The position numbers and the translations under genes are program-made. This document shows positions 950 to 44,693 of a DNA stretch of 64,000 bases, in pieces. Below the pieces are notes generated by a model, which saw nothing but the letters and a program-made list of their open reading frames with translations, was not told where the DNA came from and searched no databases. The stretch is from Bacillota bacterium (GTDB taxonomy: Bacteria; Bacillota; Clostridia; Acetivibrionales; DTU013): the NCBI GenBank assembly GCA_023409735.1, contig JAEYRB010000010.1:153404-217403 (forward strand), written 5' to 3'. Position 1 is the stretch's first letter. Every line of letters starts with the position of its first letter.

Positions 950-1291
950 TGTAAATAAGTGCTGTAGCTTGCGGAAAAGAGACAAAAAGAAGAGTCAGAA
1001 AGGGATGGTTCCTTTTGACTCACAGGATGTTCATGCGTTCTTGTATGCAGCTTGCGGCATGGATGTTCATGGAATATTGTGATGAACTTAGAGAATGCAG
1101 TGAGGATCAATAAATTTGCCGGAAGAACACAGAGGAACTCAGGAGAGTAAGTTAATCATAGTAAGGATTCCAGCTGCAGTGAAAGCTCGCGAAATTGCAG
1201 TAAGCGTTTATTGAGCTGCGGTTAGGTATTTGTACGATTTTGCAGAATCGTATTATTGCAGTGAAGGTTGATGAGTTTACAGGGAGGATTC

Positions 1292-2996: not shown

Positions 2997-3287
2997 ATGG
3001 ACGAAGAAAGAGATGATATAGTTGTATTAGTTGATGAAAACGGTGAAGAGGTTGAATTTGAGCATATTGATACAATAGAAATGAATGGAAATGAGTATGT
3101 TGTTCTTGCTCCGCTTAGTGAAGATGAAGAAGAAGAGCTAGACGAGGAAGAAGTTATTATATTAAAGGTCGAGCATGGTGAAGATGGTGAGGATACCTTT
3201 ATTACCATTGAGGATGATGATGAGTTGGATGATGTCTTCGATGAGTTCCAGTCAAGGATGGAAGATCTATTCGAGCCTGAAGACTAA
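2997..3287 (+). CDS. DUF1292 (UPF0473) acidic protein
   Basis: IVVLVDENGEEVEFEHIDTIEMNGNEYVVLAP core plus acidic tail; usual partner of ireB/ruvX in Firmicutes. Confidence 0.8.
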   Translation: MDEERDDIVVLVDENGEEVEFEHIDTIEMNGNEYVVLAPLSEDEEEELDEEEVIILKVEHGEDGEDTFITIEDDDELDDVFDEFQSRMEDLFEPED

Positions 3288-4944: not shown

Positions 4945-5023
4945 GATCCTCTGTGTTTTCGAGGAAGCAGTCGATCCAGGTTGACAGTTAAAAGTAAATT
5001 AAAAAATTTTAGTAGTTATATAG

Positions 5024-5055
5024 GGAATCCGGTCTATAGCCGGATTCCTTTTTTT
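5024..5055 (+). terminator. intrinsic terminator
   Basis: GGAATCCGG-tctatag-CCGGATTCC followed by T7. Confidence 0.85.
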
Positions 5056-5300
5056 ATGGCTCTGTGTCAATAGTTAGGGTGGGGCTCTAGCAAAATAAAA
5101 TATTGATATATTTTTCTGCCAGATAATCTAGTAAATATTCTGGTTACTGCCAGTTTTATTTTATATGGATATCAAACAGAGGCTGAGCTGATACCGCGGC
5201 TGGGTTACGTCACAAAACAGGCTGTAGTATGTAAGGTCTTTTTCAAGCAGCTACAATACTTTTCTGCTAGTCTCTCAAGTATTATTAATTCAATTAGTAA

Positions 5301-7067
<1,767 letters not shown>

Positions 7068-7120
7068 TTATGTTTCTATTTTTCTTAAATTTATTGCCAA
7101 GCCCAAGGATCATGAATCAT

Positions 7121-7154
7121 CAAAAGACTTGCTTTATTTATTGTTCGGCAAGTC
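7121..7154 (-). terminator. probable terminator of the GOGAT-glnA-ANTAR operon
   Basis: On the minus strand GACTTGC-15 nt loop-GCAAGTC followed by TTTTG. Confidence 0.45.
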
Positions 7155-7222
7155 ATTCAAATACTTATAAGTTACAGATTTGCTTAAGTATCATCAATTG
7201 CACAACAAATCCATATTATACT

Positions 7223-7335
7223 CATAAGTATCTATAGCACTATGAATCTGTCATATGGATATAAGTTATCTACAGCACTATGATTCCATCATAAGCCATA
7301 AGTATCTATAGCATTATGAATCCGTCATATGTCAT
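7223..7335. repeat. ~37-39-bp degenerate tandem repeat x3 abutting the 3' end of the ANTAR gene
   Basis: CATAAGTATCTATAGCACTATGAATCTGTCATATGG / TATAAGTTATCTACAGCACTATGATTCCATCATAAGC / CATAAGTATCTATAGCATTATGAATCCGTCATATG. Confidence 0.8.
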
Positions 7336-7338
7336 AAT

Positions 7339-7926
7339 TCAGTTTTCATATGTTCTGATGATATTCTCTGCTATCTCTCGCTTTGTTAGCCGCATATCCA
7401 TAGCTTGTTTTTCAATGAATCTGTGTGCTTGATCCTCATTCATGTTCAGATACTTGATCAGCACCCATTTTGCCCTGTTCACTATGCGTATTTCATCCAT
7501 TTTTGCCATAAGTGTCTTGTTCTTTGCTTCGGCTGTTCTCAGTCTCCCGCGCATGGCAACAGCAAGCTTTACTGCGCTGTACATAATAGCTTTGCTTACG
7601 GGCTTTGCAACAGTAATTACCCCATAGTTCTCCACCTTATAGGAAACATCATTATACAGCTCACCTTTTACGAGGAGTATAACACCTGAAGGATTTGTAT
7701 GTACAACATCAAGGGCAAAATCAGCTCCGAATTCATCGCTGAGCGGCGCATTTATTATAACTATGTCATATTCTGCACAAACCAACTTACGCTTAGCTGA
7801 GCTGCAATCCTTAATGAGCTCAACTGGGCTGAAGGATGAGGGCGGCAGAAGCTCCAAAAGCTGCTCGAGTATTTTATTTGTACTTGATACTACAAGGACA
7901 CTGCTCATTGTTCTCTCGGCAAGCAT
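7339..7926 (-). CDS. ANTAR-domain RNA-binding regulator with an atypical (pseudo-)receiver domain
   Basis: C-terminal IVNRAKWVLIKYLNMNEDQAHRFIEKQAMDMRLTKREIAENII = ANTAR; N-terminal CheY-like fold with SS for the acidic pair and N (IVIINAPL) at the phospho-acceptor position. Confidence 0.85.
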   Translation of the reverse strand: MLAERTMSSVLVVSSTNKILEQLLELLPPSSFSPVELIKDCSSAKRKLVCAEYDIVIINAPLSDEFGADFALDVVHTNPSGVILLVKGELYNDVSYKVENYGVITVAKPVSKAIMYSAVKLAVAMRGRLRTAEAKNKTLMAKMDEIRIVNRAKWVLIKYLNMNEDQAHRFIEKQAMDMRLTKREIAENIIRTYEN

Positions 7927-7942
7927 AGTAACAGCCCCCCGA

Positions 7943-9160
7943 TCAAAGAGAAAGCATTACGTACGTATCGATAACGCGACGCGGCAAAATGCTTTGCACA
8001 AAGCTGCTTGTGCTCATCAGCCTTGAAGCTTCATCAAGACTCAATGGTAAAGTCTTTAAAGTATCAAGCATCACCTTGTCTGCCTTGAAAAGGTTCACAT
8101 CTGTAGATGGCGGAGGTGTTAGCTTATTTTTGATTCCGTCAAGTCCGGCATATAATATGGCGGTATATGCCAGATAGGGGTTAGCTGTGGCATCAGGAGA
8201 GCGAAGCTCGATTCTGGCATGCTGCCGGTCAGCCGCAGGAATACGTATCAGCTGTGAACGATTCTGAGGAGACCAGGTGATATATTTTGGTGCCTTGCAC
8301 TCTCCAAGCCTTTTGTAGGAAGCGTGAACGGGATTGAGGAGCATTGTTATATCTTGTATATGTTCAAGTATTCCTGCCATAAAAGCTTCAATGCAGTTTT
8401 CATTGTTGATGCTGTGGAGCGAAAGGTTTATATGCATTCCACTGCCGCTTTTACCTTCAAGGGGTTTTGGATCAAAGGAGGCGTGGAGCCCGTTTCGTGC
8501 AGCTATGGTTTTTACAACAGTTTTGAAGGTTATTGCGTTGTCTGCCGCAGACAGTATGTCGCTGTAGTGAAAATCTATTTCGTTCTGACCGGGACCTTCC
8601 TCATGGTGTGATGCCTCCGGCTTTATTCCCATATCTTCTAGAGTAAGGCATATTTCACGCCTTACGTTCTCACCTGCATCTTCAGGAGCAATATCCATAT
8701 ATCCGGCACTGTCAAACGGTATATTAGTGGGATGGCCGTTCTCATCATTTTTGAAAAGATAGAATTCAAATTCTGCTCCCACATAGCATATAATACCCAT
8801 TTCACTTGCAGCAGCTACTGCTTTTTTCAAAAGCATACGAGTATCAAGCTCAAAAGGTGTGCCGTCGGGATGCTTTATATCGCAGAACATACGAACAACG
8901 CGGCCCTGAGATGGACGCCATGGCAATAGCGACAGCGTTGACGGATCGGGAAACAGGAAAAGGTCTGATTTTACTTCATCTCCAAAACCTCTGACTGCAG
9001 AGGCATCGAAGGATATTCCGTGATCGAATGCACCATCTAGCTCGTCTGAAAGAATTGATATATTCTTTGGTACTCCGAAGATGTCGCAAAATGCAAGCTT
9101 TATAAACTTTACATCCTCTTCCTTAACATAATCCAGTACTTCTTTTTTTGTATAGTACAT
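7943..9160 (-). CDS. glnA: glutamine synthetase, type I, unusually short (405 aa)
   Basis: EFEFYLF, ASHHEEGPGQNEIDF, GSGMHINLS, NPVHASYKRL, WSPQNRSQLIRIP and IELRSPDATANPYLA motifs present; ends about 20 aa earlier than B. subtilis GlnA by my alignment. Confidence 0.9.
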   Translation of the reverse strand: MYYTKKEVLDYVKEEDVKFIKLAFCDIFGVPKNISILSDELDGAFDHGISFDASAVRGFGDEVKSDLFLFPDPSTLSLLPWRPSQGRVVRMFCDIKHPDGTPFELDTRMLLKKAVAAASEMGIICYVGAEFEFYLFKNDENGHPTNIPFDSAGYMDIAPEDAGENVRREICLTLEDMGIKPEASHHEEGPGQNEIDFHYSDILSAADNAITFKTVVKTIAARNGLHASFDPKPLEGKSGSGMHINLSLHSINNENCIEAFMAGILEHIQDITMLLNPVHASYKRLGECKAPKYITWSPQNRSQLIRIPAADRQHARIELRSPDATANPYLAYTAILYAGLDGIKNKLTPPPSTDVNLFKADKVMLDTLKTLPLSLDEASRLMSTSSFVQSILPRRVIDTYVMLSL

Positions 9161-9174
9161 CCGATTCCCTCCAA

Positions 9175-9894
9175 TCAGTTTTGAACATAGAGCTGCTTAT
9201 ATGGATTACTTGTGTTAGGTGTCAATGTATAAAAGTTTTTGTTAAAAATTTCATTTTTATCAGTATAAAACAATTCGGAAAATGTATCAATATATGCAGA
9301 AATTTCTTCCATATCGCATTGGCTTGATTGATTGACTGCTACCTGACGGGGAAACCTTGCAGAAAGCTTTTCTGCGCGTATGACTATTTTGCCGCCGTGC
9401 ATCCCTGTGCCGCAGAAATTACCAAGAATTTCTTCATCCTTAAAGCCTAGTCCTAAAACTATGATTAACCCTCCTGCCTGATATTCTCCAAGAAAGCTTC
9501 CGCATTTGCCGCCAATTACCATAACCGGTTTTTTATCTGCATATGCCTTCATATGGATGCCTGCACGATAGCCTACATCTCCCTTTATGAATATCTCGCC
9601 ACCCCTCATTGCATAGCCTGCTGCATCACCGCAGCTGCCATGGACAACGATTCTTCCTGAATTCATAGTATCGCCTGTGGCGTCCTGTGCGTTTCCGTTG
9701 ACAACTATTGTGGCACCATCCAGATATGCACCCAGGGCATTGCCGGGAACACCATTGATCATAAGCGTTCCACTGCTTCTGCCAGCCCCGATAAAACGCT
9801 GCCCAAGACAGCTGTTAATGGTGATTTCACCTTCGGTAGATACAATTTGTCTGTTTAAAAAATTGTATCCAATATTTTCACTGTTTAATATCAT
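9175..9894 (-). CDS. glutamate synthase GXGXG (GltB C-terminal beta-helix) domain protein
   Basis: Gly-rich repeats VVHGSCGDAAGYAMRGGEIFIKGDVGYRAGIHMK...VIGGKCGSFLGEYQAGG; start overlaps the stop of the upstream ORF. Confidence 0.8.
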   Translation of the reverse strand: MILNSENIGYNFLNRQIVSTEGEITINSCLGQRFIGAGRSSGTLMINGVPGNALGAYLDGATIVVNGNAQDATGDTMNSGRIVVHGSCGDAAGYAMRGGEIFIKGDVGYRAGIHMKAYADKKPVMVIGGKCGSFLGEYQAGGLIIVLGLGFKDEEILGNFCGTGMHGGKIVIRAEKLSARFPRQVAVNQSSQCDMEEISAYIDTFSELFYTDKNEIFNKNFYTLTPNTSNPYKQLYVQN

Positions 9895-11132
9895 GATTTT
9901 ACACCTCCCAGTTTTTCATCCCTGAATTTTCTTGAAAAAGCTGCCAGACCGGGCTGTTTGAAGATTAAGGCGCTATCTATGCTTGACAGCGGCGTACGTT
10001 CACGGATAAGTGAGGTGTATATTCCTGCCTTATTTACATCACCTATCATTATATACCCCTTTAGCAGATCGTTTTTGTAAAACAGCTTCTTAAGACTTTC
10101 TGAGCTGTGTTCTTCGTATTTTTCCCCGTCATAATTACCGGCAGTAATAATGTGCATTCCAAAAAAACCGATTGCATTCATGGGGATTGCTTTATTATAG
10201 ACCATGCTGCCACCGGCCATATTGATACCGGCCACATGGCCTCCGTAGTAAGCATTTGGAAGCAAAGCCAGGACACGATCAGTGTCTGAGGAAATATCAT
10301 GGCACTCAGTACAATCTCCTGCTGCAAAAATGTTTTCCAGGGTTGTTTCCATTTTGCTGTTTACGTTAATACCTTTATTTACTAAACCACCGGCGTCCTT
10401 AACAAGAGCTGTATTAGGGCGTACGCCCACTGCGGTGACCAATATGTCGAAGCTAAGTTCTTCTCCGCTTGTAAGGAGAGCGGCATTACCCCTGAACTCC
10501 TTAACGGAGGTGCCGAGCTTGAATTCTATACCATGTGTTTCAAGGTGTTTTTGGACCAGAGCTGCACCTTCACTGTCCAGTATGCTTGATAGAATTGATG
10601 GTGCAAGGTCAATTACTGTAACACTGTTTACCCGTTTAGTTATTCCTTCGGCGCATTTAAGGCCTATAAGCCCCCCGCCGATAATGAGAATCCTTTTGTC
10701 CTTACCAAGTACAGTATCCAGTGCGATTGCATTGTCAAGAGTCATAAAGCTGAAGTGGTTTGAAACTGTCTCCAAGCCCTTCATAGGAGGTACAAACGGA
10801 GAGGAGCCTGCTGCAACAAGAAGCTTATCATAAATCACGCTCTCTCCGCTTTCGAGAAGCACCTGACATGCTATTGTATCAATTTTCACAGCCTTTTTAC
10901 CAAACTGTGCTGTGCACTTATTATCAGAATAAAAGGAGTCCGGCCTGTATTTCATCCTTTGTTCGTCTGTTTTTCCCTGCAGCAAGTAAGAAATAAGCGG
11001 GCGCGAGTACATATGATATGGCTCATCGCTTATAATTGTGATACTGCCTTTATTGTCAATTTCACGGATTCCCTCGACACAGCCTGCAGCAGCAGTTGAA
11101 TTTCCTATTATAACATATCGCAATATACTCAC
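9891..11132 (-). CDS. FAD/NAD(P)-dependent pyridine nucleotide-disulfide oxidoreductase, probable electron-input subunit of the split GOGAT
   Basis: Two Rossmann motifs (VIIGNSTAAAG; ILIIGGGLIGLKCAE) and AAGDC; overlaps neighbouring ORFs by 4 nt on both sides. Confidence 0.8.
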   Translation of the reverse strand: MSILRYVIIGNSTAAAGCVEGIREIDNKGSITIISDEPYHMYSRPLISYLLQGKTDEQRMKYRPDSFYSDNKCTAQFGKKAVKIDTIACQVLLESGESVIYDKLLVAAGSSPFVPPMKGLETVSNHFSFMTLDNAIALDTVLGKDKRILIIGGGLIGLKCAEGITKRVNSVTVIDLAPSILSSILDSEGAALVQKHLETHGIEFKLGTSVKEFRGNAALLTSGEELSFDILVTAVGVRPNTALVKDAGGLVNKGINVNSKMETTLENIFAAGDCTECHDISSDTDRVLALLPNAYYGGHVAGINMAGGSMVYNKAIPMNAIGFFGMHIITAGNYDGEKYEEHSSESLKKLFYKNDLLKGYIMIGDVNKAGIYTSLIRERTPLSSIDSALIFKQPGLAAFSRKFRDEKLGGVKS

Positions 11133-11557
11133 CTCTCTTCATATACTATAGCTTGGTTTGGACATCCTTCAATACATTTAGGATTGCCTGAAGAATTTTC
11201 AATACAAAGCTCACATTTTTGCATAACTCCGTTATCGGCCGGCATAATTGCACCATATGGACAGGATAATATGCAAGTATAGCACTGTACACATTTATCC
11301 TTATTGATGCGCACAACCCCATTTTCTCTAGTTAGAGCGCCTGTTATGCAGTTCATCACACATAGTGGTTCATCACAATGACGGCAGGAAACTGCAAAGC
11401 ATATTTTCCCATCAGTCTCAACATGTATATTCGGTTGTATTTTTATATTTTTCAGTGCGGTAAACATATTATCCTTGCCTGAATTTGCAAATGCGCAGTA
11501 GTATTCGCATAAATGACAGCCAAGGCACCAATCTTCGTTAACATAAACTCGCTTCAT
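11129..11557 (-). CDS. 4Fe-4S dicluster ferredoxin-like protein
   Basis: CLGCHLCEYYC, CRHCDEPLCVMNC, CVQCYTCILSCP and CIEGCP motifs; GAGGTG 6 nt before ATG at 11557. Confidence 0.8.
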   Translation of the reverse strand: MKRVYVNEDWCLGCHLCEYYCAFANSGKDNMFTALKNIKIQPNIHVETDGKICFAVSCRHCDEPLCVMNCITGALTRENGVVRINKDKCVQCYTCILSCPYGAIMPADNGVMQKCELCIENSSGNPKCIEGCPNQAIVYEER

Positions 11558-11567
11558 AGAAAGCACC

Positions 11568-13073
11568 TCACTCCCCGGCATGTTTGATTCCAAGTATTTC
11601 GAGCTCCTTTATGCCAAGTCCTATACCGCGGAGCATCAAGCGGTTTCCTCTAAGAGCTTCTATGGAGTTAATGCCCATTGCGCCCATAAGCTCTTTAATT
11701 TCGTGATTCCATGCAGTAACAAGGTTAACAAGCCTATGATAGGCGATATCAGGATTTAATCTTTTGACAAGCTCTGGGCGCTGGGTCGCAATACCCCAGT
11801 TGCATTTTCCTGCCTGGCAGCTTCTGCACAGGTGACAGCCTATGGCGAGCAGAGCGGCAGTTGCTATATATACGGCGTCGGCTCCAAGTGCTATAGCCTT
11901 TACAACATCGGAGCTGCTGCGTATACTGCCACCGATTACAAGTGAGACATCGCCTCGGATACCTTCATCACGCAGCCTTTGATCTACGCTGGCAAGTGCA
12001 AGCTCCACAGGTATGCCTACATTATCTCTTATTCTTGTAGGAGCAGCTCCTGTGCCGCCTCTGAAGCCGTCTATAGCTATGATATCAGCGCCGCTTCTGG
12101 CTATGCCGCTTGCAATAGCAGCGATATTGTGAACAGCTGCTACCTTTACAATAACAGGCTTCTTATAGCTTGTGGCCTCTTTAAGGGAGTATACCAATTG
12201 TCTTAGATCCTCTATTGAATATATGTCATGATGAGGTGCAGGGGAGATGGCGTCCGAGCCCTCAGGTATCATTCTGGTCTTTGATATGTCGCCTACGATT
12301 TTTGAGCCGGGAAGGTGACCGCCTATGCCGGGTTTAGCACCCTGACCCATTTTTATCTCAATTGCTGCACCTGCTTCAAGATAGCCCTTATGAACTCCAA
12401 AACGTCCTGAGGCAACCTGCACTATTGTATTTGGCCCGTATTGATAGAAGTCCTCATGGAGTCCGCCCTCGCCAGTGTTATAGCAGGTACCGAGCTCACT
12501 TGCGGCAAGAGCAAGGCTTTTGTGGGCGTTATAGCTGATGGAGCCATAGGACATGGCAGAAAACATGATCGGCATTGGAAGCTCAAGCTGAGGGGACATT
12601 TTTGTTTTAATAGTCCCATCCTCGTTTCTTTCTATTTTATCGGGCTTTTTGCCAAGGAATACCTTTGTTTCCATGGGCTCTCGAAGCGGGTCTATAGGTG
12701 GATTTGTCACCTGTGATGCATTTATTAGTATTTTGTCCCAGTAAACAGGAAATTCCTTAGGGCAGCCCATTGAGGACAAAAGCACTCCTCCGCTGTCTGC
12801 CTGGCGGTATATCTCCTTTATAGACTGGTCGCTCCAGTTTGCATTTTCTCTGAAGCGGTGTTCTGAGGGCCTTATTTTAAGGGCCCTTGTGGGACACAAG
12901 GAAACACAGCGGTGACAGTTGACGCATTTTGCTTCGTCGCTGATCATAACACCAAGCTCTGAGTCAAAGCTGTGAACCTCATTTGCGCACTGCCTTTGGC
13001 AGACCTTGCATTGTATGCACCTGGAACTGTCCCGTACTACTTCGTAATCAGGATATATAAATTGTATCGGCAT
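11568..13073 (-). CDS. glutamate synthase FMN-binding domain protein (GltB domain-2-like) with N-terminal 2x[4Fe-4S]
   Basis: CIQCKVCQRQC, CVNCHRCVSLCP, then NTGEGG, GQGAKPGIGGHLPG, SPAPHHDIYSIEDL and DGFRGGTGAAP. Confidence 0.9.
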   Translation of the reverse strand: MPIQFIYPDYEVVRDSSRCIQCKVCQRQCANEVHSFDSELGVMISDEAKCVNCHRCVSLCPTRALKIRPSEHRFRENANWSDQSIKEIYRQADSGGVLLSSMGCPKEFPVYWDKILINASQVTNPPIDPLREPMETKVFLGKKPDKIERNEDGTIKTKMSPQLELPMPIMFSAMSYGSISYNAHKSLALAASELGTCYNTGEGGLHEDFYQYGPNTIVQVASGRFGVHKGYLEAGAAIEIKMGQGAKPGIGGHLPGSKIVGDISKTRMIPEGSDAISPAPHHDIYSIEDLRQLVYSLKEATSYKKPVIVKVAAVHNIAAIASGIARSGADIIAIDGFRGGTGAAPTRIRDNVGIPVELALASVDQRLRDEGIRGDVSLVIGGSIRSSSDVVKAIALGADAVYIATAALLAIGCHLCRSCQAGKCNWGIATQRPELVKRLNPDIAYHRLVNLVTAWNHEIKELMGAMGINSIEALRGNRLMLRGIGLGIKELEILGIKHAGE

Positions 13074-14167
13074 TATTTTGACCCCCTATCCAAAGTAACA
13101 ATTACAGGCTCTCCGCCCCTTGGATACCATATCCTTGAGGGGGACGGCTCCATCATTCTAATGGCGCATTCCTCACTGGCGAAGTAAACTATATCGCCCT
13201 TCTCAGCTGCCACCATCGACCTTAGCTTAAGCCTGTCATTGAGTGCCATAAGTCCACCCTCAAAGCCCAACAATATTGAGAAAGGTCCCGTAATGAGCAA
13301 GCTGCTGAAGGTGTTCCTAAGGAAGGTAAGACGCTCCTCTTCCTTTTTGCTCTTTGTTTCTATAGTGCTCCAGAAGGGAGCTGCTATAACGCTGGCAGCC
13401 TCTTCAAGAGTTAAGCCCTGTCGTCTGAGCAGGTAGTCGAATATATATGTAATTACCTCGGTATCTGTAAGCAGAGTACACTTATAACCAAACATCTCGA
13501 TATATCTCCTGTTTGCATCATAGGAGGATATCTCACCATTATGCACTATGGAATAATCCAGCATTGCAAAGGGATGCGCCCCGCCCCACCAGCCGGGAGT
13601 GTTGGTCGGATAGCGGCCATGAGCTGTCCAGCTGTAGCCTTCATATTCATCCAGACGGTAGAATTCGCCCACATCCTCGGGGAAGCCCACTGCTTTGAAT
13701 ACGCCCATGTTCTTGCCACTTGAAAACACATATGAGCCTTTGTATTCCTTGTTGATCCTCAGTACCGCTCTGGCCATGTACTCCTTTTCATCAAGCTGGC
13801 TGTCTTTAAGCTTGTTGTTGTTGGGAGCTACAAAATAGCGCCATATTAATGGCTCGTTAACTATTTTTGGCGATTTGCGTATTGGAATTTTTGAAAGATT
13901 AATAACCTCAAACATCTTATCGAGATATCTCTCACATTCATCTCTAGCTGCTATGCTGTCGTAAAATATATGGAGAGCATAGAAGTCCTTGTACTGCGGA
14001 TATATGCCATAGCCTGCAAAACCGCCGCCTAAACCATTGGACCTTTCATGCATAGTCGTCATGGACTTCACAATTGTTTCACCGCATATATTATTACCGC
14101 TTCTTGAGATTACACCTGCTATGGCGCAGCCTGACGGAATACGGATATCGCCTTCTCTTGGCAGCAT
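13073..14167 (-). CDS. class-II glutamine amidotransferase (GltB domain-1-like)
   Basis: PSGCAIAGV nucleophile context, HGRYPTNTPG, HNGEISSY; GAAGGGA 9 nt before ATG at 14167 (track ORF starts at TTG 14176). Confidence 0.85.
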   Translation of the reverse strand: MLPREGDIRIPSGCAIAGVISRSGNNICGETIVKSMTTMHERSNGLGGGFAGYGIYPQYKDFYALHIFYDSIAARDECERYLDKMFEVINLSKIPIRKSPKIVNEPLIWRYFVAPNNNKLKDSQLDEKEYMARAVLRINKEYKGSYVFSSGKNMGVFKAVGFPEDVGEFYRLDEYEGYSWTAHGRYPTNTPGWWGGAHPFAMLDYSIVHNGEISSYDANRRYIEMFGYKCTLLTDTEVITYIFDYLLRRQGLTLEEAASVIAAPFWSTIETKSKKEEERLTFLRNTFSSLLITGPFSILLGFEGGLMALNDRLKLRSMVAAEKGDIVYFASEECAIRMMEPSPSRIWYPRGGEPVIVTLDRGSK

Positions 14168-14186
14168 ATTCTTCAATCCCTTCTGT

Positions 14187-14239
14187 AAAAAATAAAAGCG
14201 CTCACAAAGAGATATGTGTATCTCTTAATGAACGCCTTT
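14187..14239 (-). promoter_or_regulatory. leader hairpin plus U-tract in the 5' UTR of the GOGAT-glnA operon (candidate attenuator)
   Basis: Minus-strand RNA: AAAG(G)CG..[AAGAGATA-caca-TATCTCTT]..CGCTTT then TATTTTTT, lying between the promoter and the RBS. Confidence 0.45.
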
Positions 14240-14250
14240 GTTCTTTTAAC

Positions 14251-14279
14251 AGTATATGCCTGTGCATATGATTTGTCAA
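14251..14279 (-). promoter_or_regulatory. sigma-A-type promoter of the GOGAT-glnA-ANTAR operon
   Basis: Minus strand TTGACA (14279-14274), 17-nt spacer, TATACT (14256-14251). Confidence 0.6.
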
Positions 14280-14403
14280 TAATAAATGAATGATTTAATA
14301 ACAAAACTTGCAGTAATGGCTTAAAAGAATGTTGAAATACAAACATTTGACTAACTAATAACAAGAATATGAAAGAAAATATTTAAAACTTGCATTTTTA
14401 CTA

Positions 14404-14432
14404 TTGACAATGCATAAACATGATAGTAGAAT
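14404..14432 (+). promoter_or_regulatory. sigma-A-type promoter of glnN-amt
   Basis: TTGACA 14404-14409, exactly 17 nt, TAGAAT 14427-14432. Confidence 0.65.
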
Positions 14433-14442
14433 GATTGCATTG

Positions 14443-14497
14443 AAACGGCAAAGACGCCGCAGGATTTAACTGTGGTGTCTTTGCCGTTTTTTGTTTT
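14443..14497 (+). terminator. intrinsic terminator inside the glnN 5' leader (attenuator)
   Basis: AAACGGCAAAGAC(GCCGCAG-gatttaa-CTGTGGT)GTCTTTGCCGTTT followed by TTTGTTTT, located between the promoter and the GGGGTGAG RBS of glnN. Confidence 0.8.
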
Positions 14498-14519
14498 AAT
14501 TTTTTGAAGGGGTGAGATT

Positions 14520-16616
14520 ATGAGTAATGTACCTGAAATGTTCGGATGTATGGTATTCAATGATGCAGCAATGAAACAGAGACTTCCAAAAGAAACATAC
14601 AAGGCGATGCAAAATGCCATAAAGAATGGCCAGCGCCTTAATATCGACATAGCAAATGTAGTAGCAAATGCAATGAAGGATTGGGCAGCCGAAAAGGGTG
14701 CAACACATTTTACGCATTGGTTTCAGCCAATGACCGGTATTACAGCGGAAAAGCATGATAGCTTTATAGCGCCGGTGGAAGGCGGTAAGGTTATAATGGA
14801 ATTTTCAGGAAAGGAGCTTGTACACGGCGAGCCCGATGCGTCGAGTTTCCCCTCAGGTGGACTCAGAGCTACATTTGAAGCCAGAGGCTACACTGCGTGG
14901 GATCCTACATCATACGCTTTTATAAAGGATAAGACACTGTGTATACCTACGGCCTTCTGCTCCTATGACGGAAAGGCGCTGGATAAGAAAACGCCGCTTC
15001 TCAGGTCGATGGAGGCCATTAACAGGCAGGCACTTCGTGTCCTTAAACTATTCGGGAATGAGGATGTGACTTCTGTTAACACCACGATAGGGCCTGAGCA
15101 GGAGTATTTCATTATCGACAAGGGTGTGTATGAAAGACGTAAGGACTTGATATTTGCAGGTCGCACACTTTTCGGAGCAAAACCGCCTAAAGGACAGGAG
15201 CTGGAGGACCACTATTTCGGAGCTATTAAGCCCAGAATATCAGCATTTATGCAGGAGCTTGACGAAGAGCTGTGGAGACTTGGTGTGCTTGCGAAAACGA
15301 AGCATAACGAAGTAGCCCCGGCACAGCACGAACTGGCGCCTATTTTTGAGACCGTAAACATAGCAACAGATCATAATCAATTAACTATGGAGACTATGAA
15401 AAAGGTAGCTCAGAAGCATGGAATGGTATGCCTGCTGCATGAAAAACCCTTTGCAGGTGTTAATGGAAGCGGTAAGCATAATAACTGGTCGATCAGCACA
15501 AATACCGGTGTGAATCTTCTTGAACCGGGTGATACACCCCATGAGAACGCGCAGTTCCTGTTGTTTTTATGCGCTGTTATTAAGGCTGTTGATGATTATC
15601 AGGATCTCCTGAGAATATCAGTTGCAACAGCGGGTAATGACCACAGGCTTGGTGCAAATGAAGCTCCTCCTGCAGTTGTATCAATATTTTTGGGAAGTGA
15701 GCTAAGTGAAATACTCGACTCTATCGAAAAGGGTACAGCCTATGATGTAAAGGAAAAGACGCAGTTGAAGGTTGGCGTCCATGTCCTTCCGCGATTCCCC
15801 AGAGATATGACAGACCGCAACAGAACCTCACCATTTGCCTTTACAGGCAACAAATTTGAATTCCGCATGCCCGGTTCATCTCTGTCTGTGGCGGGAGTTA
15901 ACGTAGTGCTTAATACAGCAGTTGCTGAGGAACTGAGACAATTTGCCGACAGACTTGAGGTTTCACAGAGTTTGAATGATGACCTGAATAAACTTATAAA
16001 GGATGTTGTAAGCCGGCATAAGCGGATATTGTTCAACGGAAACGGTTATGATGAGGAATGGATAAAGGAAGCAACTGAAAAACGTGGGCTTCTCAATCTT
16101 AAGACTACACCTGACTGTATGCCTTATTTCCTGCATGAAAAGAACATAGCGCTGTTTACTTCCCACAGAGTATTTTCAGAGGCAGAAATGAAGTCTCGGT
16201 ATGAAATACTCCTGGACAATTATTGTAAGACGATCAGAATAGAAGCTCTTACAATGCTTCAAATGTCAAAGCAGGATATCCTGCCGGCAATTTCGGCATA
16301 TGTTAAGGAGCTAAGCTTGACAGCTGCCGCTAAGAAGCAGTGCGTTACAACGGCGGATTGCACATTTGAAGAAAAAACCGTTGAGAAGTTATCCGGATTA
16401 TGCGCTGCAATTTATAGGAATATGAGCAGCCTTGATGCTATTATGCTTGATGTACAAAACAACAAGGATACTACGGATCAAGCTGTATTTATAAAGGATA
16501 ATGTAATACCTATGATGAATGAGCTGCGCGCTACAGTTGATGAGGCAGAAACACTATGTTCAGCGAATTGGTGGCCGATGCCCACATATGGAGAGCTATT
16601 GTTCAGCGTAAAATAG
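14520..16616 (+). CDS. glnN: glutamine synthetase, type III
   Basis: 698 aa; N-terminus [20 protein letters not shown] and core [31 protein letters not shown] and [14 protein letters not shown] match the GS-III class. Confidence 0.9.
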
Positions 16617-16727
16617 TCAGGTTAATTTTATAATTGTTTAATTAATGCGTTGCCTGAAGGGCTACGGCAAAAAGACGAGAGGGGCTCGAGGTACCCGAAA
16701 CTTTTATTATTCAAGGGAGGCGAATGT

Positions 16728-18455
16728 ATGGATAAATATCTAGAACTATTCTCTGATGTCAATACCATGTGGGTGTTAATAGCGTCAGCACTTGTATTCT
16801 TTATGCAGGCTGGGTTTGCTATGGTTGAAACCGGATTTACTCGTGCAAAAAATGCCGGAAACATTATAATGAAGAATATGATGGACTTCTGTATCGGGGC
16901 ACCGCTTTATTGGATCGTGGGCTTCGGTATAATGTTTGGCACACAAAGTGCAATATTTGGCGGAATCGATATTTTAACACAGGGCGACTATAGCGCAGTG
17001 TTGCCGGAGGGTGTCAGCTTTTTCAGCTATTTTATATTCCAGACGGTTTTTTGCGGAACAGCTGCAACAATAGTTTCAGGAGCAATGGCTGAGAGAACTA
17101 AATTCAGTGCCTACTGCATATATAGTGCTATGATCAGTCTTATAATATATCCTGTATCAGGTCACTGGATATGGGGCGGCGGCTGGCTGGCTCAGTTGGG
17201 CTTCCATGATTTTGCTGGTTCAACAGCGGTGCATCTTGTTGGTGGTATATGTGCGCTTGTAGGCGCTTCTATACTTGGACCTCGTATAGGCAAATATGAT
17301 AAAAATGGTAAACCTCAGGCAATTCCGGGACACAGCCTTACCTTGGGTGCACTTGGTGTATTTATACTATGGTTTTGCTGGTTTGGCTTCAATGGCGGTT
17401 CAACTGTATCAATGTCAAATGGCGGAGCTGAGCTGGCCGGAAAGGTTTTCTTCAACACGAATCTCGCAGCAGCAACCGCAACTGTAGCAGTTATGATAAT
17501 TACATGGATAAGATATAGAAAGCCCGACGTGTCAATGACTCTTAACGGTTCCTTGGCGGGACTAGTAGCAATTACAGCCGGATGTGACGTAGTAAACCCT
17601 TGGGCAGCAGCAGTCATAGGAATAATTGCAGGAACTGCAGTTGTATTCGGAATCGAATTTATTGATAAGGTAATGAAGATCGACGACCCAGTCGGAGCCG
17701 TGGGCGTACACTTTATGAATGGTGCACTTGGAACGATTCTTACAGGTGTATTCGCTTCAAATGAAGCTCTCGAAGACATGGGAATGAGCCGTCTGCACTT
17801 TCTTGGAGTTGAGGTTCTGGGCGTGCTTGTAACAACCTTGTGGGCGGGTGTAGCAATAAGTATAGTCTTCTTCATAATAAAGAAAACTGTTGGACTTCGT
17901 GCCGATGCCCAGGCAGAAATCGATGGACTTGATATTCATGAGCACGGCCTTGTGAATGCATACGCCGACTTCATGCCATCAATTCCTGCAGTGAATGTGG
18001 ATGTTGCACTGCCCGGTATACCTAAGGGCTCGATACCGGTTGATGAGGCAGTACCGGTTCAGCTTAAGACCTTCTCTGGAACGGTTACCGGCTCTGATGT
18101 AAAAATGAGCAAGGTAGAGATTATATTTAAGCAGGAGCGCTTTGAAGCTTTTAAGGAAGCAATGCTGGGAATAGGCATAACAGGAATGACTGTTACTCAT
18201 GTGCTTGGCTGCGGTGTACAGAAGGGAAAGCCGGAATATTACCGAGGTATTATTCAGCAGATAGAGCTTCTGCCCAAGGTTCAGGTTGAGATAGTCGTTT
18301 GCAAGGTGCCTGTGCGAACAGTAATTGAAACAGCTAAGAGAGTATTGTACACAGGACATATAGGTGATGGAAAAATATTTGTATATGATGTTGAAAATGT
18401 TGTAAAGGTTCGCACCGGTGAAGAAGGCTATGATGCTCTGCAGGATGTTGAATAA
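16728..18455 (+). CDS. amt: ammonium transporter (Amt) fused in frame to a C-terminal P-II (GlnB/GlnK) domain
   Basis: Amt core (FMQAGFAMVETG, DFAGSTAVHLVGG, GWFGFNGGS, GVHFMNGALG), ~50-aa linker, then MSKVEIIFK...GITGMTVTHVLGCGVQKG...IGDGKIFVYDVENVVKVRTGEEG from 18105; AGGGAGG before ATG 16728. Confidence 0.9.
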   Translation: MDKYLELFSDVNTMWVLIASALVFFMQAGFAMVETGFTRAKNAGNIIMKNMMDFCIGAPLYWIVGFGIMFGTQSAIFGGIDILTQGDYSAVLPEGVSFFSYFIFQTVFCGTAATIVSGAMAERTKFSAYCIYSAMISLIIYPVSGHWIWGGGWLAQLGFHDFAGSTAVHLVGGICALVGASILGPRIGKYDKNGKPQAIPGHSLTLGALGVFILWFCWFGFNGGSTVSMSNGGAELAGKVFFNTNLAAATATVAVMIITWIRYRKPDVSMTLNGSLAGLVAITAGCDVVNPWAAAVIGIIAGTAVVFGIEFIDKVMKIDDPVGAVGVHFMNGALGTILTGVFASNEALEDMGMSRLHFLGVEVLGVLVTTLWAGVAISIVFFIIKKTVGLRADAQAEIDGLDIHEHGLVNAYADFMPSIPAVNVDVALPGIPKGSIPVDEAVPVQLKTFSGTVTGSDVKMSKVEIIFKQERFEAFKEAMLGIGITGMTVTHVLGCGVQKGKPEYYRGIIQQIELLPKVQVEIVVCKVPVRTVIETAKRVLYTGHIGDGKIFVYDVENVVKVRTGEEGYDALQDVE

Positions 18456-18794
18456 GACATTAAAATGACTATGATACACTGCATGGATCGTCAGTACGGC
18501 ATGTCCCATTCATACAGGCAGCCTGCAGAAATGTAATGCATGTAAGATATAGCTTAAAGACATAAGCCTTATCCGCAAGCAGTGAGCAGGTATGTAATGT
18601 ACTCCATGTTAGAGTTAGCCATGTATTGTCTATTAATATGCAAGTGAATTATCTATCAATCAAAATTGAGTTGTTAGTAAAGCTGCGTTACTTACACCAC
18701 GAGCATTAGACAGTGGGTAATGCTTCACACATGTGTGCGGTAGCGAAATACTCATGATTCATTACTAGAAGTAACTGATATAGTAAATCAAGCC

Positions 18795-18839
18795 CCGGAG
18801 GTGTAGAATAAATGCCTCCGGCGGCAGCATTTTTGGAGG
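18795..18839 (+). promoter_or_regulatory. asnB leader hairpin with possible anti-Shine-Dalgarno alternative
   Basis: CCGGAGG (18795-18801), 13-nt loop, CCTCCGG (18815-18821), then CATTTTT and the SD GGAGG (18835-18839); CCTCC could pair with either GGAGG. Confidence 0.35.
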
Positions 18840-18848
18840 TAAATTGAT

Positions 18849-20429
18849 ATGTGTTGTATTATGGCTATAGACAGAAGCAATATTGGAATGGAAAGATTTA
18901 TACAATGCTTCAACCGTACTGTTTCCAGGGGACCTGACATGACAAGGGTGATCGAACTGGATAACGGGGGGATTATGGGCTTTCACCGTCTGGCTATTAT
19001 GGGCCTTGACGAAAGCGGAATGCAGCCGTTTACACTTAATAACAATTATATAGTATGTAATGGTGAAATGTACGGCTTTCGCAAAATGAAGCAACAGCTA
19101 TCTGAAAAATACTGCTTCGTGAGTAATTCGGACTGCGAAATACTGCTGCCAATGTATGAGAGCTATGGCTATGATATGTTCAGAAGGCTTGATGCGGAAT
19201 TTGCCATGATTATTTATGACAGCAGGAAAAAATCCTTTGTAGCGGCTAGAGATCCCATAGGTATAAGACCTTTATTTTATGGTGAAGGTCATGAGGGTGA
19301 GATGCTGTTCGCCTCTGAAGCTAAGAATCTGGTAGGCTTGACAGACAAGATAATGCCTTTTCCTCCGGGTTATTATTATGCAGAAGGTAAATTCACTTGC
19401 TACTGCAACATAGCTCAAAGGCAGGAGTATGTTACTAATGACTTGGAGACTGCATGCAGGAATATACATGATAAGCTGGTTAAAGGGATAGAAAAAAGAC
19501 TTGATGCTGATGCCCCTGTGGGCTTTCTTCTGAGTGGCGGCCTTGACAGCTCACTGGTATGCTCGGTGGCTGCAAAAATTCTAGGAAAGCCTATACGTAC
19601 CTTTGCCATAGGGATGAGCGGGGATGCGATAGACCTGAAATACGCTCGCCAGGTAGCTGAATACATAGGCAGCGAGCATAGAGAAATAATTATTGACAGA
19701 CATAAGGTGCTTACATCCATAGCCGAGGTCATAAGCGTGCTTGGCACTTACGATATTACAACCATAAGGGCAAGTATTGGCATGTACCTGATCTGTAAGG
19801 CAATACATGAAACCACAGATATACGCGTCCTGTTGACAGGCGAGATATCTGACGAAATATTCGGGTATAAATATACTGATTTTGCGCCTTCAGCTGAGGA
19901 ATTCCAGTTGGAAGCGGAAAAACGCCTTCGGGAGCTGCACATGTATGATGTACTAAGAGCTGACAGGTGTATCTCATCTAATTCTATTGAGGCAAGGGTA
20001 CCCTTCGGTGATTTGGATTTCGTAAAATATGTTATGAGCATTCCGGCTGAAATGAAGCTTAATACCTATGGTAAGGGCAAATATCTGCTCAGACATGCAT
20101 TTGAAGGAGACTATCTTCCGGATAACATACTCTACCGTGAAAAAGCTGCCTTCAGTGATGCGGTGGGCCACTCCATGGTAGATTATATAAAGGAATATGC
20201 AGAAGAATATTACAGTGATAATGAATATGAGGAGAAACGAATGAAGTATTCGTTCGCAACGCCATTTACAAAGGAATCACTGCTGTATAGGGAAGTGTTT
20301 GAAAAGTACTATCCAGCACAGGCGGAGATGGTCAAGGATTTCTGGATGCCTAACAAGACATGGGAAGGCTGCAATGTGGATGATCCCTCTGCAAGAGTGT
20401 TGAAGAATTACGGCGGCAGCGGCGAGTAA
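18849..20429 (+). CDS. asnB: asparagine synthase (glutamine-hydrolysing), AsnB type
   Basis: N-terminal MC nucleophile, FLLSGGLDSS PP-loop, typical AsnB C-terminal half. Confidence 0.9.
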   Translation: MCCIMAIDRSNIGMERFIQCFNRTVSRGPDMTRVIELDNGGIMGFHRLAIMGLDESGMQPFTLNNNYIVCNGEMYGFRKMKQQLSEKYCFVSNSDCEILLPMYESYGYDMFRRLDAEFAMIIYDSRKKSFVAARDPIGIRPLFYGEGHEGEMLFASEAKNLVGLTDKIMPFPPGYYYAEGKFTCYCNIAQRQEYVTNDLETACRNIHDKLVKGIEKRLDADAPVGFLLSGGLDSSLVCSVAAKILGKPIRTFAIGMSGDAIDLKYARQVAEYIGSEHREIIIDRHKVLTSIAEVISVLGTYDITTIRASIGMYLICKAIHETTDIRVLLTGEISDEIFGYKYTDFAPSAEEFQLEAEKRLRELHMYDVLRADRCISSNSIEARVPFGDLDFVKYVMSIPAEMKLNTYGKGKYLLRHAFEGDYLPDNILYREKAAFSDAVGHSMVDYIKEYAEEYYSDNEYEEKRMKYSFATPFTKESLLYREVFEKYYPAQAEMVKDFWMPNKTWEGCNVDDPSARVLKNYGGSGE

Positions 20430-20720
20430 CCTCGATGCTAAAGAATTACAACGGCAGTAGGGGCCTCTAGACTTCAGTGCCGAAGAATATAGAGGCAACA
20501 GGGGCATGTAGATCACGGTGCTGAAGGAATGCTGCGACCGAGTGGTCTATGCCCCCAACCCAATGCCGAAGAATTGCAGCGGGTAGCGGCGAGTAGACTT
20601 CAGTGCCGAAGAATTACGGCAGCAGCGGTGAGTAACCTCGATGCTAAAGAATTACAACGGCAGCGTCGAGTAACATGTGGCGAAGTAGCGCAGCTAGCCG
20701 CTGCAAATCAACTGGCCCCT
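20398..20720. repeat. ~40-bp degenerate tandem array (~8 units) starting inside the last codons of asnB
   Basis: TG(C/T)(C/T)GAAGAATTACGGCGGCAGCGGCGAGTAA-like units at ~20398, 20436, 20478, 20519, 20564, 20604, 20642 and 20678; several retain a TAA or TAG. Confidence 0.8.
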
Positions 20721-20769
20721 CAACGCAGCTAGCCGTTACTGCCAGTTCCTCAGCGTCGCAACAAAGCAG

Positions 20770-21696
20770 CTAAGCATTACCGCTGATCTCCTCAAGTGCT
20801 GTAATAAGCTTATACAATAGCTGATTGACAGGTGTTGCAACTCCATATTGTTGTCCCAGTTCTATTACCGTACCTGCAAATATATCAACCTCTGTTTTCC
20901 TGCCTGCTTCTACGTCTTGCAGCATAGAGGTCTTGCCCAGAGGAGAAATTGCTTCGAGAACAGCTGCATATTGCGCCAAATCGTCTTCTGACAGCCTTAC
21001 CCCTACTCTTTCCGCAATGGCGATGACCTCCCGTGATGCGGCGAACATGAGCTCACGAGCAGCGCCGGGTTTTGTAAATGGACCATAGGGTGCCCGCAAA
21101 ACTGCTGACACCTGGTTAATTCCTACATTCATCATAAATTTCCACCATTGCTCCCGGATTATATCCTCGGGTATGGTATAGGGAATATGCGCTTTATCAA
21201 AGAAGTCCCGAATAGCCTGTACCTTTAAAGAGGCTGCTGAATCCTCCCGGTCGCCAAATACGATTTTTCCAATTTTACTATACTGAATATTAGTCCCAGA
21301 CCGCACTGAATCTGTTGCTACTACAAAGGAATGGAGCATTTTATCCATGCCATATGTATTGCCGATTCGCTCCTCGCTGGAAATACCGTTTAAAAGTGAA
21401 AGTATTATAGTATCAGAACCGATAAGAGTCTTTATATCCGAAATGGCTTGCTCTAAATGGTGCTGCTTGACTGCAACAATAACTAGATCGGCAGTTTCTT
21501 TTATTGACCCCGGATACACATAATCAAAGGAGGTCAATTTCTCGTTAATTTTTATGCCTGACTCGGTATATCTTTTAGCACGCTGGCTATCCACTATTAC
21601 CTTAAGCTGACCGGGACAGTACTCCTGTATCCTTCCAGCATAAGCTCCGCCTACTGCTCCGAGTCCGATCAGATATACACGCTGTATTTGGCTCAT
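20770..21696 (-). CDS. panE: 2-dehydropantoate 2-reductase (ketopantoate reductase family)
   Basis: VYLIGLGAVGGAYAGRI Rossmann N-terminus, ~308 aa, ApbA/PanE-like C-terminal domain (KTSMLQDVEAGRKTEVD). Confidence 0.8.
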   Translation of the reverse strand: MSQIQRVYLIGLGAVGGAYAGRIQEYCPGQLKVIVDSQRAKRYTESGIKINEKLTSFDYVYPGSIKETADLVIVAVKQHHLEQAISDIKTLIGSDTIILSLLNGISSEERIGNTYGMDKMLHSFVVATDSVRSGTNIQYSKIGKIVFGDREDSAASLKVQAIRDFFDKAHIPYTIPEDIIREQWWKFMMNVGINQVSAVLRAPYGPFTKPGAARELMFAASREVIAIAERVGVRLSEDDLAQYAAVLEAISPLGKTSMLQDVEAGRKTEVDIFAGTVIELGQQYGVATPVNQLLYKLITALEEISGNA

Positions 21697-21983
21697 TGAT
21701 ATGATCCTCCTAAAATGCTTGCTGTAGTTTTATATTGAATATTTATTATAAAGTATTATGACATTTTTAGCTTTGAAATTCAATTGCTTATAAATCTGCA
21801 GGCGCGGCAATAGTTAATATAATAAGCCGAAGCCGCCAAATAAGTGAAAGAAGTATAACTGGCAGTAAAACTATATTTAATAGCAACAGTAAAATAAATG
21901 ATTTAATAACCGCAATGGGGGTTATTATAAGAGCATTCAAGCTGTCGTGCGATATTTTCGGTAATGCGAAACGCACATAACAG

Positions 21984-22018
21984 ATTATATCATGAAAACT
22001 ATGTTTTCATGATATAAT
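21984..22018. promoter_or_regulatory. perfect 16-3-16 palindrome (candidate operator) containing an extended -10 box on each strand
   Basis: ATTATATCATGAAAAC-tat-GTTTTCATGATATAAT; each arm reads TGATATAAT outward, toward the CDF gene (+) and panE (-). Confidence 0.6.
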
Positions 22019-44316: not shown

Positions 44317-44352
44317 AAAAAAAGGCGCTCCTCTAAAAAGAAAAGCGCCTTT
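44317..44352 (-). terminator. intrinsic terminator located in the 5' upstream region of the long asparagine synthase gene
   Basis: Minus strand AAGGCGCT-14 nt-AGCGCCTT followed by T7; about 80 nt upstream of the ATG. Confidence 0.7.
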
Positions 44353-44693
44353 GCTTTACAGTCTAGTATATGCAGTATGCAGCCCGAGGTTACAACTTCT
44401 CAAGCTCCTGTTTGTATGTTGAATAATTTCACTCTTTAGAAAAATAATATTAAGCAACAAGCATCAGCCTCGCACAGATGTATAGAAAATACGCTTATTT
44501 CTGTCACAGGGCTCTAAAACGGGCTGTATGCTTCTACTAAGTGCAATGTGCAGGATTTTTAATTTATTCATTAGTGGAATAAATTAAAAGGTTTCTCGGG
44601 AAAGATTGTGGAGAAACTATTAAAGGCTTTTAATAAAAAAGGTATTGTAAAAAAACTTATGAAAAATGTAATTTTATAAAGGAGGACAGTAAA

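Follow-up and report, generated by a model that had tools for sequence, protein, structure and literature searches.

Two divergent nitrogen-assimilation operons, the GOGAT operon on the minus strand and the glnN operon on the plus strand, are separated by a 343-nt spacer (14177-14519), and the leader of each probably works as a protein-dependent attenuator of the ANTAR type, in which an ANTAR dimer bound to a hexaloop hairpin would prevent termination. Each leader contains exactly one hexaloop hairpin with A at loop position 1, G at loop position 4 (A1/G4) and four Watson-Crick pairs, located inside the 5′ arm of an intrinsic terminator. The initial annotation had proposed ANTAR antitermination at both leaders. 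That idea gained from the finding of an embedded, covarying hairpin and of further nitrogen operons with such leaders, but it needs correction on two points: the canonical pair of hairpins is absent, and the co-encoded regulator is not the obvious effector.

Promoters and terminators of the divergent leaders

The genes and leader elements in the window (the whole 64-kb stretch of DNA that was analysed) are as follows.

14520-16616, plus strand: glnN, type III glutamine synthetase (GS), ATG at 14520
16650-18455, plus strand: Amt-PII fusion gene, next after glnN
18849-20429, plus strand: asnB, after a 390-nt spacer behind the Amt-PII gene
14167 down to 7339, minus strand: GOGAT operon, split, archaeal-type glutamate synthase
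7943-9160, minus strand: GS-like gene, 405 aa, 16 nt before the ANTAR gene
7339-7926, minus strand: gene of the type A ANTAR regulator, 195 aa, at the end of the GOGAT operon (Pfam ANTAR, E 4.6e-16)
42387-44234, minus strand: second asnB of the window, identity by TIGR01536
14404-14409 and 14427-14432, plus strand: predicted glnN promoter, TTGACA, 17 nt, TAGAAT (11/12 consensus match)
14443-14505, plus strand: intrinsic terminator of the glnN leader, a 20-pair stem-loop at 14443-14489 and a U-rich tract to 14505
14446-14459, plus strand: glnN hexaloop hairpin (P2-like) CGGC[AAAGAC]GCCG, with A1, G4 and a C-G closing pair
14506-14516, plus strand: glnN ribosome-binding site GAAGGGGTGAG, followed by the ATG start codon to 14522
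14279-14274 and 14256-14251, minus strand: predicted GOGAT promoter, TTGACA, 17 nt, TATACT (11/12 consensus match)
14187-14243, minus strand: intrinsic terminator of the GOGAT leader, a nested hairpin at ~14243-14198, then TTTTATTTTTT at 14197-14187
14243-14230, minus strand: GOGAT hexaloop hairpin GAAC[AAAGGC]GTTC, with A1, G4 and a C-G closing pair
14184-14177, minus strand: GOGAT ribosome-binding site AGAAGGGA, with ATG at 14167-14165

The products of the GOGAT operon are a GATase_2 protein (13073-14167), an FMN domain, a ferredoxin, a Pyr_redox_2 protein, a GXGXG domain, the GS-like protein and the ANTAR regulator. By its homologues the genome belongs with gut and rumen Clostridia such as Oscillospirales and Acutalibacteraceae-like MAGs and Clostridium methylpentosum. 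The untranslated 390-nt spacer ahead of asnB (18456-18848) contains a hairpin, CCGGAGG...CCTCCGG (~18794-18822), followed by a T-run; neither an Rfam match nor an ANTAR-type hexaloop was detected in this spacer. At five loci of relatives (L007, L092, L099, L103 and L113) glnN has no leader of its own and lies directly 3′ of an asnA-like gene, whose product ends ...GGGIGQSR.CMLLLGKAHIGEVQ...; because of this position, glnN is probably co-transcribed with the asnA-like gene there.

Both promoters described in the initial annotation, TTGACA-17-TAGAAT on the plus strand and TTGACA-17-TATACT on the minus strand, were recovered at the places given there, each with 11 of the 12 consensus positions. 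A consensus scan revealed no other site of this quality in the 14 kb around, all remaining sites scoring at most 10/12. With 11/12 matches in both hexamer pairs, 17-nt spacing and a position that is kept in relatives, the two sites look like σ70 promoters with predicted start sites. In 10 relatives and 24 further species a glnN-type promoter (11-12/12) precedes the hairpin by 9-14 nt, and the GOGAT promoter is kept 4-9 nt upstream of the hairpin in relatives G006, G017, G037 and G007. Midway between the divergent promoters is a palindrome, AATGTT-N8-AACATT (14328-14347), a possible DNA-binding site that is not kept as such in the closest relatives G006 and G017, and TTGCA(T/A/G) words are repeated upstream of both promoters, in the window as well as in relatives. 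Another promoter-like sequence, TTGATA-17-TATACT (10/12; 9290-9262, minus strand), lies within the GXGXG gene, a short way ahead of the genes for the GS-like protein and the ANTAR regulator.

The long hairpin and U-tract that had been noted ahead of the glnN ribosome-binding site were confirmed at 14443-14489: the stem-loop has 20 pairs, 10 of them G-C, and is followed by TTTGTTTT, the combination of G+C-rich stem and U-tract expected of a rho-independent terminator. Its minimum free energy is −39.6 kcal/mol (z = −7.1; none of 200 shuffled sequences was as stable), and its apical part covaries among relatives. The nested hairpin described before the GOGAT ribosome-binding site is likewise present. 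It combines an outer helix, AAAGGCGTTCA/TGTGAGCGCTTT, with an inner 8-bp hairpin, giving about 19 pairs in the stem and a minimum free energy of −28 kcal/mol (z = −4.2; 1 of 200 shuffles as stable). Both terminators end upstream of the ribosome-binding sites.

A single hexaloop hairpin in each terminator

Targets of ANTAR proteins are marked by a hexaloop whose first base is A and whose fourth is G (Ramesh et al. 2012, PMC3369931; PMC8934654), and the loops of both hairpins conform to this definition. The initial annotation had failed to find a hexaloop pair by eye; a pair is indeed absent, but a hexaloop hairpin is not, since each leader has one. The whole of the glnN hexaloop hairpin is contained in the 5′ arm of its terminator. 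Both hairpins match the GnfR recognition sequence GGCAANGGCGCC, and the stretches CGGCAAAGACGCCG and GAACAAAGGCGTTC of the window leaders are nearly identical to the conserved Geobacter sequence CAGGCAANGGCGCC, which overlaps terminators in the leaders of nitrogen genes controlled by the ANTAR regulator GnfR (PMC2995071). Two hexaloop-like structures over the ribosome-binding sites, TTTTG[AAGGGG]TGAGA and TTTT[ACAGAA]GGGA, were rejected, each resting on three G-U pairs.

Constrained folding revealed that the hexaloop hairpin and the terminator share nucleotides and are mutually exclusive in both leaders. When the hexaloop hairpin was enforced, the energy of the glnN leader rose from −36.8 to −10.5 kcal/mol with loss of the helix beside the U-tract, and that of the GOGAT leader from −25.6 to −11.2 kcal/mol, again with no helix beside the U-tract; the U-tract-proximal helix was destroyed in the same way in the third such leader of the window, that of asnB (below). 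Because the enforced hairpin blocks this helix, an alternative antiterminator structure exists in both leaders; folding had been suggested in the initial annotation as a check, with the lack of such a structure counting against the proposal. The hexaloop hairpins alone are weak (−1.6 to −5.2 kcal/mol, versus −24 to −37 kcal/mol for the terminators).

Conservation was assessed in 40 relatives with 25 glnN and 12 GOGAT leaders. A hairpin of this type is present at the terminator base in 23 of the glnN and 9 of the GOGAT leaders, and the GOGAT hairpin itself is identical or covarying in the GOGAT leaders of 8 relatives. Dozens of related Clostridia have similar leaders ahead of glnN, GOGAT and glnA, with compensatory changes in the stem. 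Stem pairs vary on both sides (CGGC/GCCG, CAGC/GCTG, GAAC/GTTC, AAAC/GTTT, ACTC/GAGT), and no change was seen in the closing C-G pair or at A2 and G4 of the loop. In an alignment of 34 leaders 89% of cells are paired, versus 33-48% with partners slid, and the covariation score is 0.67 versus 0.23 when shuffled (0 of 500 shuffles reach 0.67); a 68-row set gave 93% and 0.76, part of this pairing statistic being circular because rows were admitted only if they had a C-G closing pair, G4 and a minimum of 3-4 stem pairs. Independent of this selection is the location of the hairpin, which most leaders share. All 33 relatives with an ANTAR gene contain the pattern RAACAANGRCGTTY, with many of its matches just upstream of glnA, and none of the 7 relatives without one contains it, a co-occurrence that is suggestive but no formal test, since the relatives are kin and the counts are not phylogenetically independent. 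A reversed control of the pattern occurs 11 times in the 7 ANTAR-less genomes.

The arrangement by which ANTAR targets were defined, two hairpins (P1 and P2) joined by a short linker (Ramesh et al. 2012), is found in neither leader. No second hexaloop hairpin was detected on either strand of 14177-14519, even with 3-bp stems allowed, and a covariance model (R1, below) run over the same spacer at E up to 10 matched the two hairpins only. The consensus scan of the spacer revealed no other promoter-like site with a score of at least 9/12. The glnN hairpin starts 13 nt after the −10 box and the GOGAT hairpin 7 nt after it, so that the latter probably begins at the predicted transcription start or no more than ~2 nt from it, likely at +1 to +3. 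With the promoters so close, a second hairpin has no room, which accounts for the lack of the canonical pair.

The same layout is seen in relatives: a single hairpin follows 4-14 nt after the end of an 11-12/12 promoter in 10 glnN and 5 GOGAT leaders, and likewise in 24 of 79 further species. Between promoter and hairpin, none of these 15 leaders and 24 species has another hexaloop hairpin. In relatives G021, G002, G001, G030 and G005 the promoter is at least 50 nt upstream and a second hexaloop hairpin is located 20-32 nt before the first. Leaders with proximal and with distant promoters thus form two coexisting architectural classes, of which the window belongs to the P1-less one. Judged by promoter conservation, on which this claim rests, the single-hairpin design appears to be conserved in more than 30 species.

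Other leaders of the genome and candidate regulators

The genome was scanned for C-G-closed A/G..G.. hexaloops with a stem of at least 4 bp that overlap a terminator in intergenic position. The four best non-repeat matches genome-wide precede glnN, GOGAT, asnB (42387-44234) and glnA (contig C53); one further top match, a low-complexity coding repeat, was set aside. Since the best matches all precede nitrogen genes, they form a coherent four-operon regulon. All four leaders carry a GGCAANGGCGCC-like sequence over the terminator, as in attenuators of the GnfR/NitR type. As a base rate, a hairpin embedded in the 5′ arm was found at 11 of 2186 terminator-like sites in the genome. A preceding, loose scan for any A..G.. 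hexaloop on a 3-bp stem had returned 74-96 matches, mostly spurious, and extra pattern matches on contigs C1, C18 and C27 were put down to chance, lying in coding or convergent regions. The third leader of the window is organized as follows.

44317-44370, minus strand: asnB leader, with TATACT, 7 nt, the hairpin AAAGC[AAAGGC]GCTTT at 44357-44342, a terminator to 44321 and a U-run

An extra hairpin and U-tract in the asnB leader was considered as a second regulated terminator and rejected, being a copy of a dispersed genomic repeat. This repeat (~55-70 nt, roughly AATGGCGTTGRCCRAAGGNCTACAGCAAAAAGGCGAGAGGGGCTCGATGCCCCCGAGACTTTTATT) consists of a hairpin and a T-run, is sometimes tandem and occurs elsewhere in the genome at over 60 sites; the copy in the asnB leader (44305-44245, minus strand) directly follows the ANTAR-type terminator. 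In the glnA leader (contig C53, ~3056-3150, plus strand) a TTGCAT-16-TATAAT promoter is located 34 nt from the hexaloop hairpin GGAAC[AACGGC]GTTCT, and in the gap an 11-bp A-U hairpin capped by the heptaloop UGGAUAU may represent a first hairpin of non-canonical form.

The covariance model R1 (22 nt) was built from 68 leaders of other genomes and includes no sequence of the present one. Its top three matches in the 64-kb window are the glnN (20.8 bits, E 0.009), asnB (19.7 bits) and GOGAT (19.0 bits) hairpins, the next one scoring 13.9 bits. Genome-wide (3.8 Mb) the model is not specific, as matches in coding regions score equally; the equal-scoring ones (C10:126833 and those on C23, C33, C34, C39, C38 and C48) were discarded as coding DNA or as lacking a terminator. 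Specificity comes from the motif combined with a terminator and a leader position. An Rfam search of 5000-22000 at E up to 10 detected no riboswitch or ANTAR-type family; a match to BTnc201 (26.9 bits against a gathering score of 105) was dismissed as reflecting the shape of promoter plus terminator only.

Two ANTAR-domain proteins are encoded in the genome, type A at the end of the GOGAT operon (7339-7926) and type B on another contig (C23:28854-29441). Type A can be aligned with Rv1626 and EutV from end to end. Its acidic pocket is replaced by VSST and its phospho-acceptor Asp by Asn (DIVIINA versus DLVIMDV), and by these residues it is a pseudo-receiver like that of AmiR; lacking both Asp and pocket, it is likely controlled by a partner protein or ligand. 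The 195-aa type B protein is PdtaR/Rv1626-like and retains the Asp; its gene adjoins prfB and an aminotransferase/AsnC pair. AmiR (AmiR/AmiC) and NasT (NasT/NasS) are ANTAR proteins whose receivers are not phosphorylated, and AmiR, like type A, has neither the phospho-acceptor Asp nor the acidic pocket. Unlike in these two systems, no AmiC- or NasS-like protein is encoded next to type A, its neighbour being a shortened GS-like protein, and the type A gene is usually downstream of a GS-like gene in relatives as well. By analogy with AmiC/AmiR, NasS/NasT and GS/TnrA this neighbour might act as the sensor, which is pure conjecture.

The co-encoded regulator had been taken as the obvious effector, a view that the relatives do not bear out. 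The same single-hairpin leaders occur in the close relatives G006, G017, G003 and G010 with type B as the sole ANTAR protein; G008, G029 and G037 have type A only, and the present genome and G007 have both. Either lineage can therefore be the only ANTAR protein beside such leaders, and the effector here is not assignable by sequence: the binding protein may be type A, type B or both. The glnA-linked classical ANTAR proteins of relatives are only 25-30% identical to either ANTAR protein of this genome. Its place at the end of the GOGAT operon would subject the type A gene to positive feedback, and the promoter-like site at 9290-9262 (minus strand) could supply basal expression of the regulator independently of the leader terminator. 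At locus L009 of relative G008 the type A gene and glnN are transcribed divergently, and the leader of the type A gene matches R1 (1206-1227, minus strand, 15.7 bits), suggesting autoregulation.

Proposed mechanism, alternatives and relation to known systems

The mechanism that we infer, with its protein binding, nitrogen signal, transcription starts, sensor and sufficiency of one hairpin, would operate as follows. A strong, constitutive-looking promoter would fire, and the first 14-20 nt of the RNA could fold into an A1/G4 hexaloop hairpin with a C-G closing pair. By default the nucleotides of this hairpin would be absorbed into the 5′ arm of the terminator and the polymerase would stop at the U-tract before the ribosome-binding site, yielding a terminated transcript of ~50-60 nt. 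Upon nitrogen limitation, the presumed signal, an active ANTAR dimer would hold the hairpin closed while the polymerase passes the U-tract, and read-through would then allow transcription of glnN-amt/PII, GOGAT-GS-like-ANTAR, asnB and glnA.

In the ANTAR systems that have been tested, two hairpins are needed: both hexaloops are required for antitermination by EutV (PMC3369931, PMC8934654), NasR and NasT, so that a single hairpin might be insufficient here or need another factor. The 2022 structure paper on EutV-RNA (PMC8934654) leaves the antitermination role of single hexaloops open. The leaders could accordingly be canonical dual-hairpin targets after all, with transcription starting further upstream or with an unrecognised or non-canonical P1 in the leader. 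Two hairpins do precede these genes in other genera of the same order, and the glnA leader of the present genome has its extra 11-bp heptaloop hairpin between promoter and hexaloop hairpin. We nevertheless consider this reading improbable, given that 14177-14519 contains neither a second hexaloop hairpin or R1 match nor another promoter of at least 9/12, and that a near-consensus promoter is held at a fixed 4-14 nt from the hairpin in more than 30 species. That one hairpin at the extreme 5′ end suffices for ANTAR antitermination in vivo, in a P1-less class served interchangeably by two ANTAR lineages, is a proposition to which we give even chances.

Regulation of the terminators by some non-ANTAR factor, such as a different RNA-binding protein or a factor of general function, with the hexaloop a coincidental feature of a conserved terminator base, has an equally low probability in our estimate. 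It would spare two unrelated-looking ANTAR paralogues the recognition of one hairpin, and it would account for relative G019, which has the motif and shows no ANTAR gene. The glnN contig of G019, however, stops 369 nt upstream of glnN, where its sister genome G008 encodes an ANTAR gene. Moreover, the hairpins agree exactly with the A1/G4 rule and with the GnfR sequence, which has experimental support, the motif is confined to ANTAR-encoding genomes (33/33 versus 0/7), and the stem of the small hairpin covaries, which a terminator alone would not require. The least probable of the alternatives, and a very unlikely one, is that the hairpins are unregulated, being leaky terminators or mRNA-stabilising 5′ stem-loops, and that control is exerted at the promoters, for example through the palindrome at 14328-14347. 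Long 5′-terminal hairpins stabilise mRNA in Firmicutes, and both the palindrome and the repeated TTGCA words are located between the promoters. Against this, stems of 20 and ~19 pairs with U-tracts before the ribosome-binding site are efficient terminators by the usual criteria, the palindrome has no conserved counterpart in the closest relatives, and a conserved alternative hairpin confined to four nitrogen operons would be left unexplained. ANTAR-dependent attenuation therefore remains our preferred reading of the leaders.

Among known systems, the leaders resemble the GnfR attenuators of nif, glnK and amtB in Geobacter sulfurreducens (PMC2995071) in that the recognition sequence lies over the 5′ side of a nitrogen-gene terminator and the antiterminator is an ANTAR protein. 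GnfR differs in being a phosphorylated response regulator with a cognate kinase acting at σ54 promoters, whereas the promoters here are σ70-like and the linked regulator is a pseudo-receiver; in addition, the conserved sequence of GnfR targets is described as lying both upstream of and over the terminator, and here in one copy at the RNA 5′ end. The A1/G4 hexaloop, the conserved closing pairs and the placement of the hairpin in the 5′ arm of the terminator are shared with the eut leaders of Enterococcus faecalis, and alignments point to the same protein fold for EutV, a receiver-like domain plus ANTAR. EutV requires P1 and P2 with a linker of 5-12 nt, and a 20-nt extension abolishes activity (PMC3369931, PMC8934654), whereas P1 is absent here; its genes concern ethanolamine rather than GS/GOGAT. 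In Clostridium saccharobutylicum (glnA-nitR, gltAB), according to the account of Stutz et al. 2007 given in PMC6316151, NitR antiterminates GS/GOGAT genes under nitrogen limitation. As in that account of NitR, the ANTAR gene is directly 3′ of a GS-like gene here, and glnA-ANTAR pairs are widespread among the relatives.

A dual-hairpin covariance search of Firmicutes published in 2012 listed ANTAR targets upstream of GS (25 mentions), GOGAT (11) and AsnB (7) (supplement, PMC3369931); a search of the literature on NitR and on ANTAR in Ruminococcus or Lachnospiraceae returned nothing specific. ANTAR control of GS, GOGAT and AsnB genes has thus already been predicted or shown elsewhere, and the regulon itself is ordinary. 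The architecture departs from the dual hairpin that defines the family, and its single-hairpin form is probably new. If one hairpin does suffice, these leaders would represent a P1-less, promoter-proximal class of attenuators, common in Oscillospirales-like Clostridia and beyond the reach of dual-hairpin covariance searches. More than 30 species of gut and rumen Clostridia have such single hairpins close to a near-consensus promoter, at several nitrogen operons, and thereby offer a natural test of single-hexaloop function. These leaders would imply that published dual-hairpin searches undercount ANTAR regulons, and suggest that these abundant anaerobes control nitrogen assimilation mainly at steps that follow transcription initiation.
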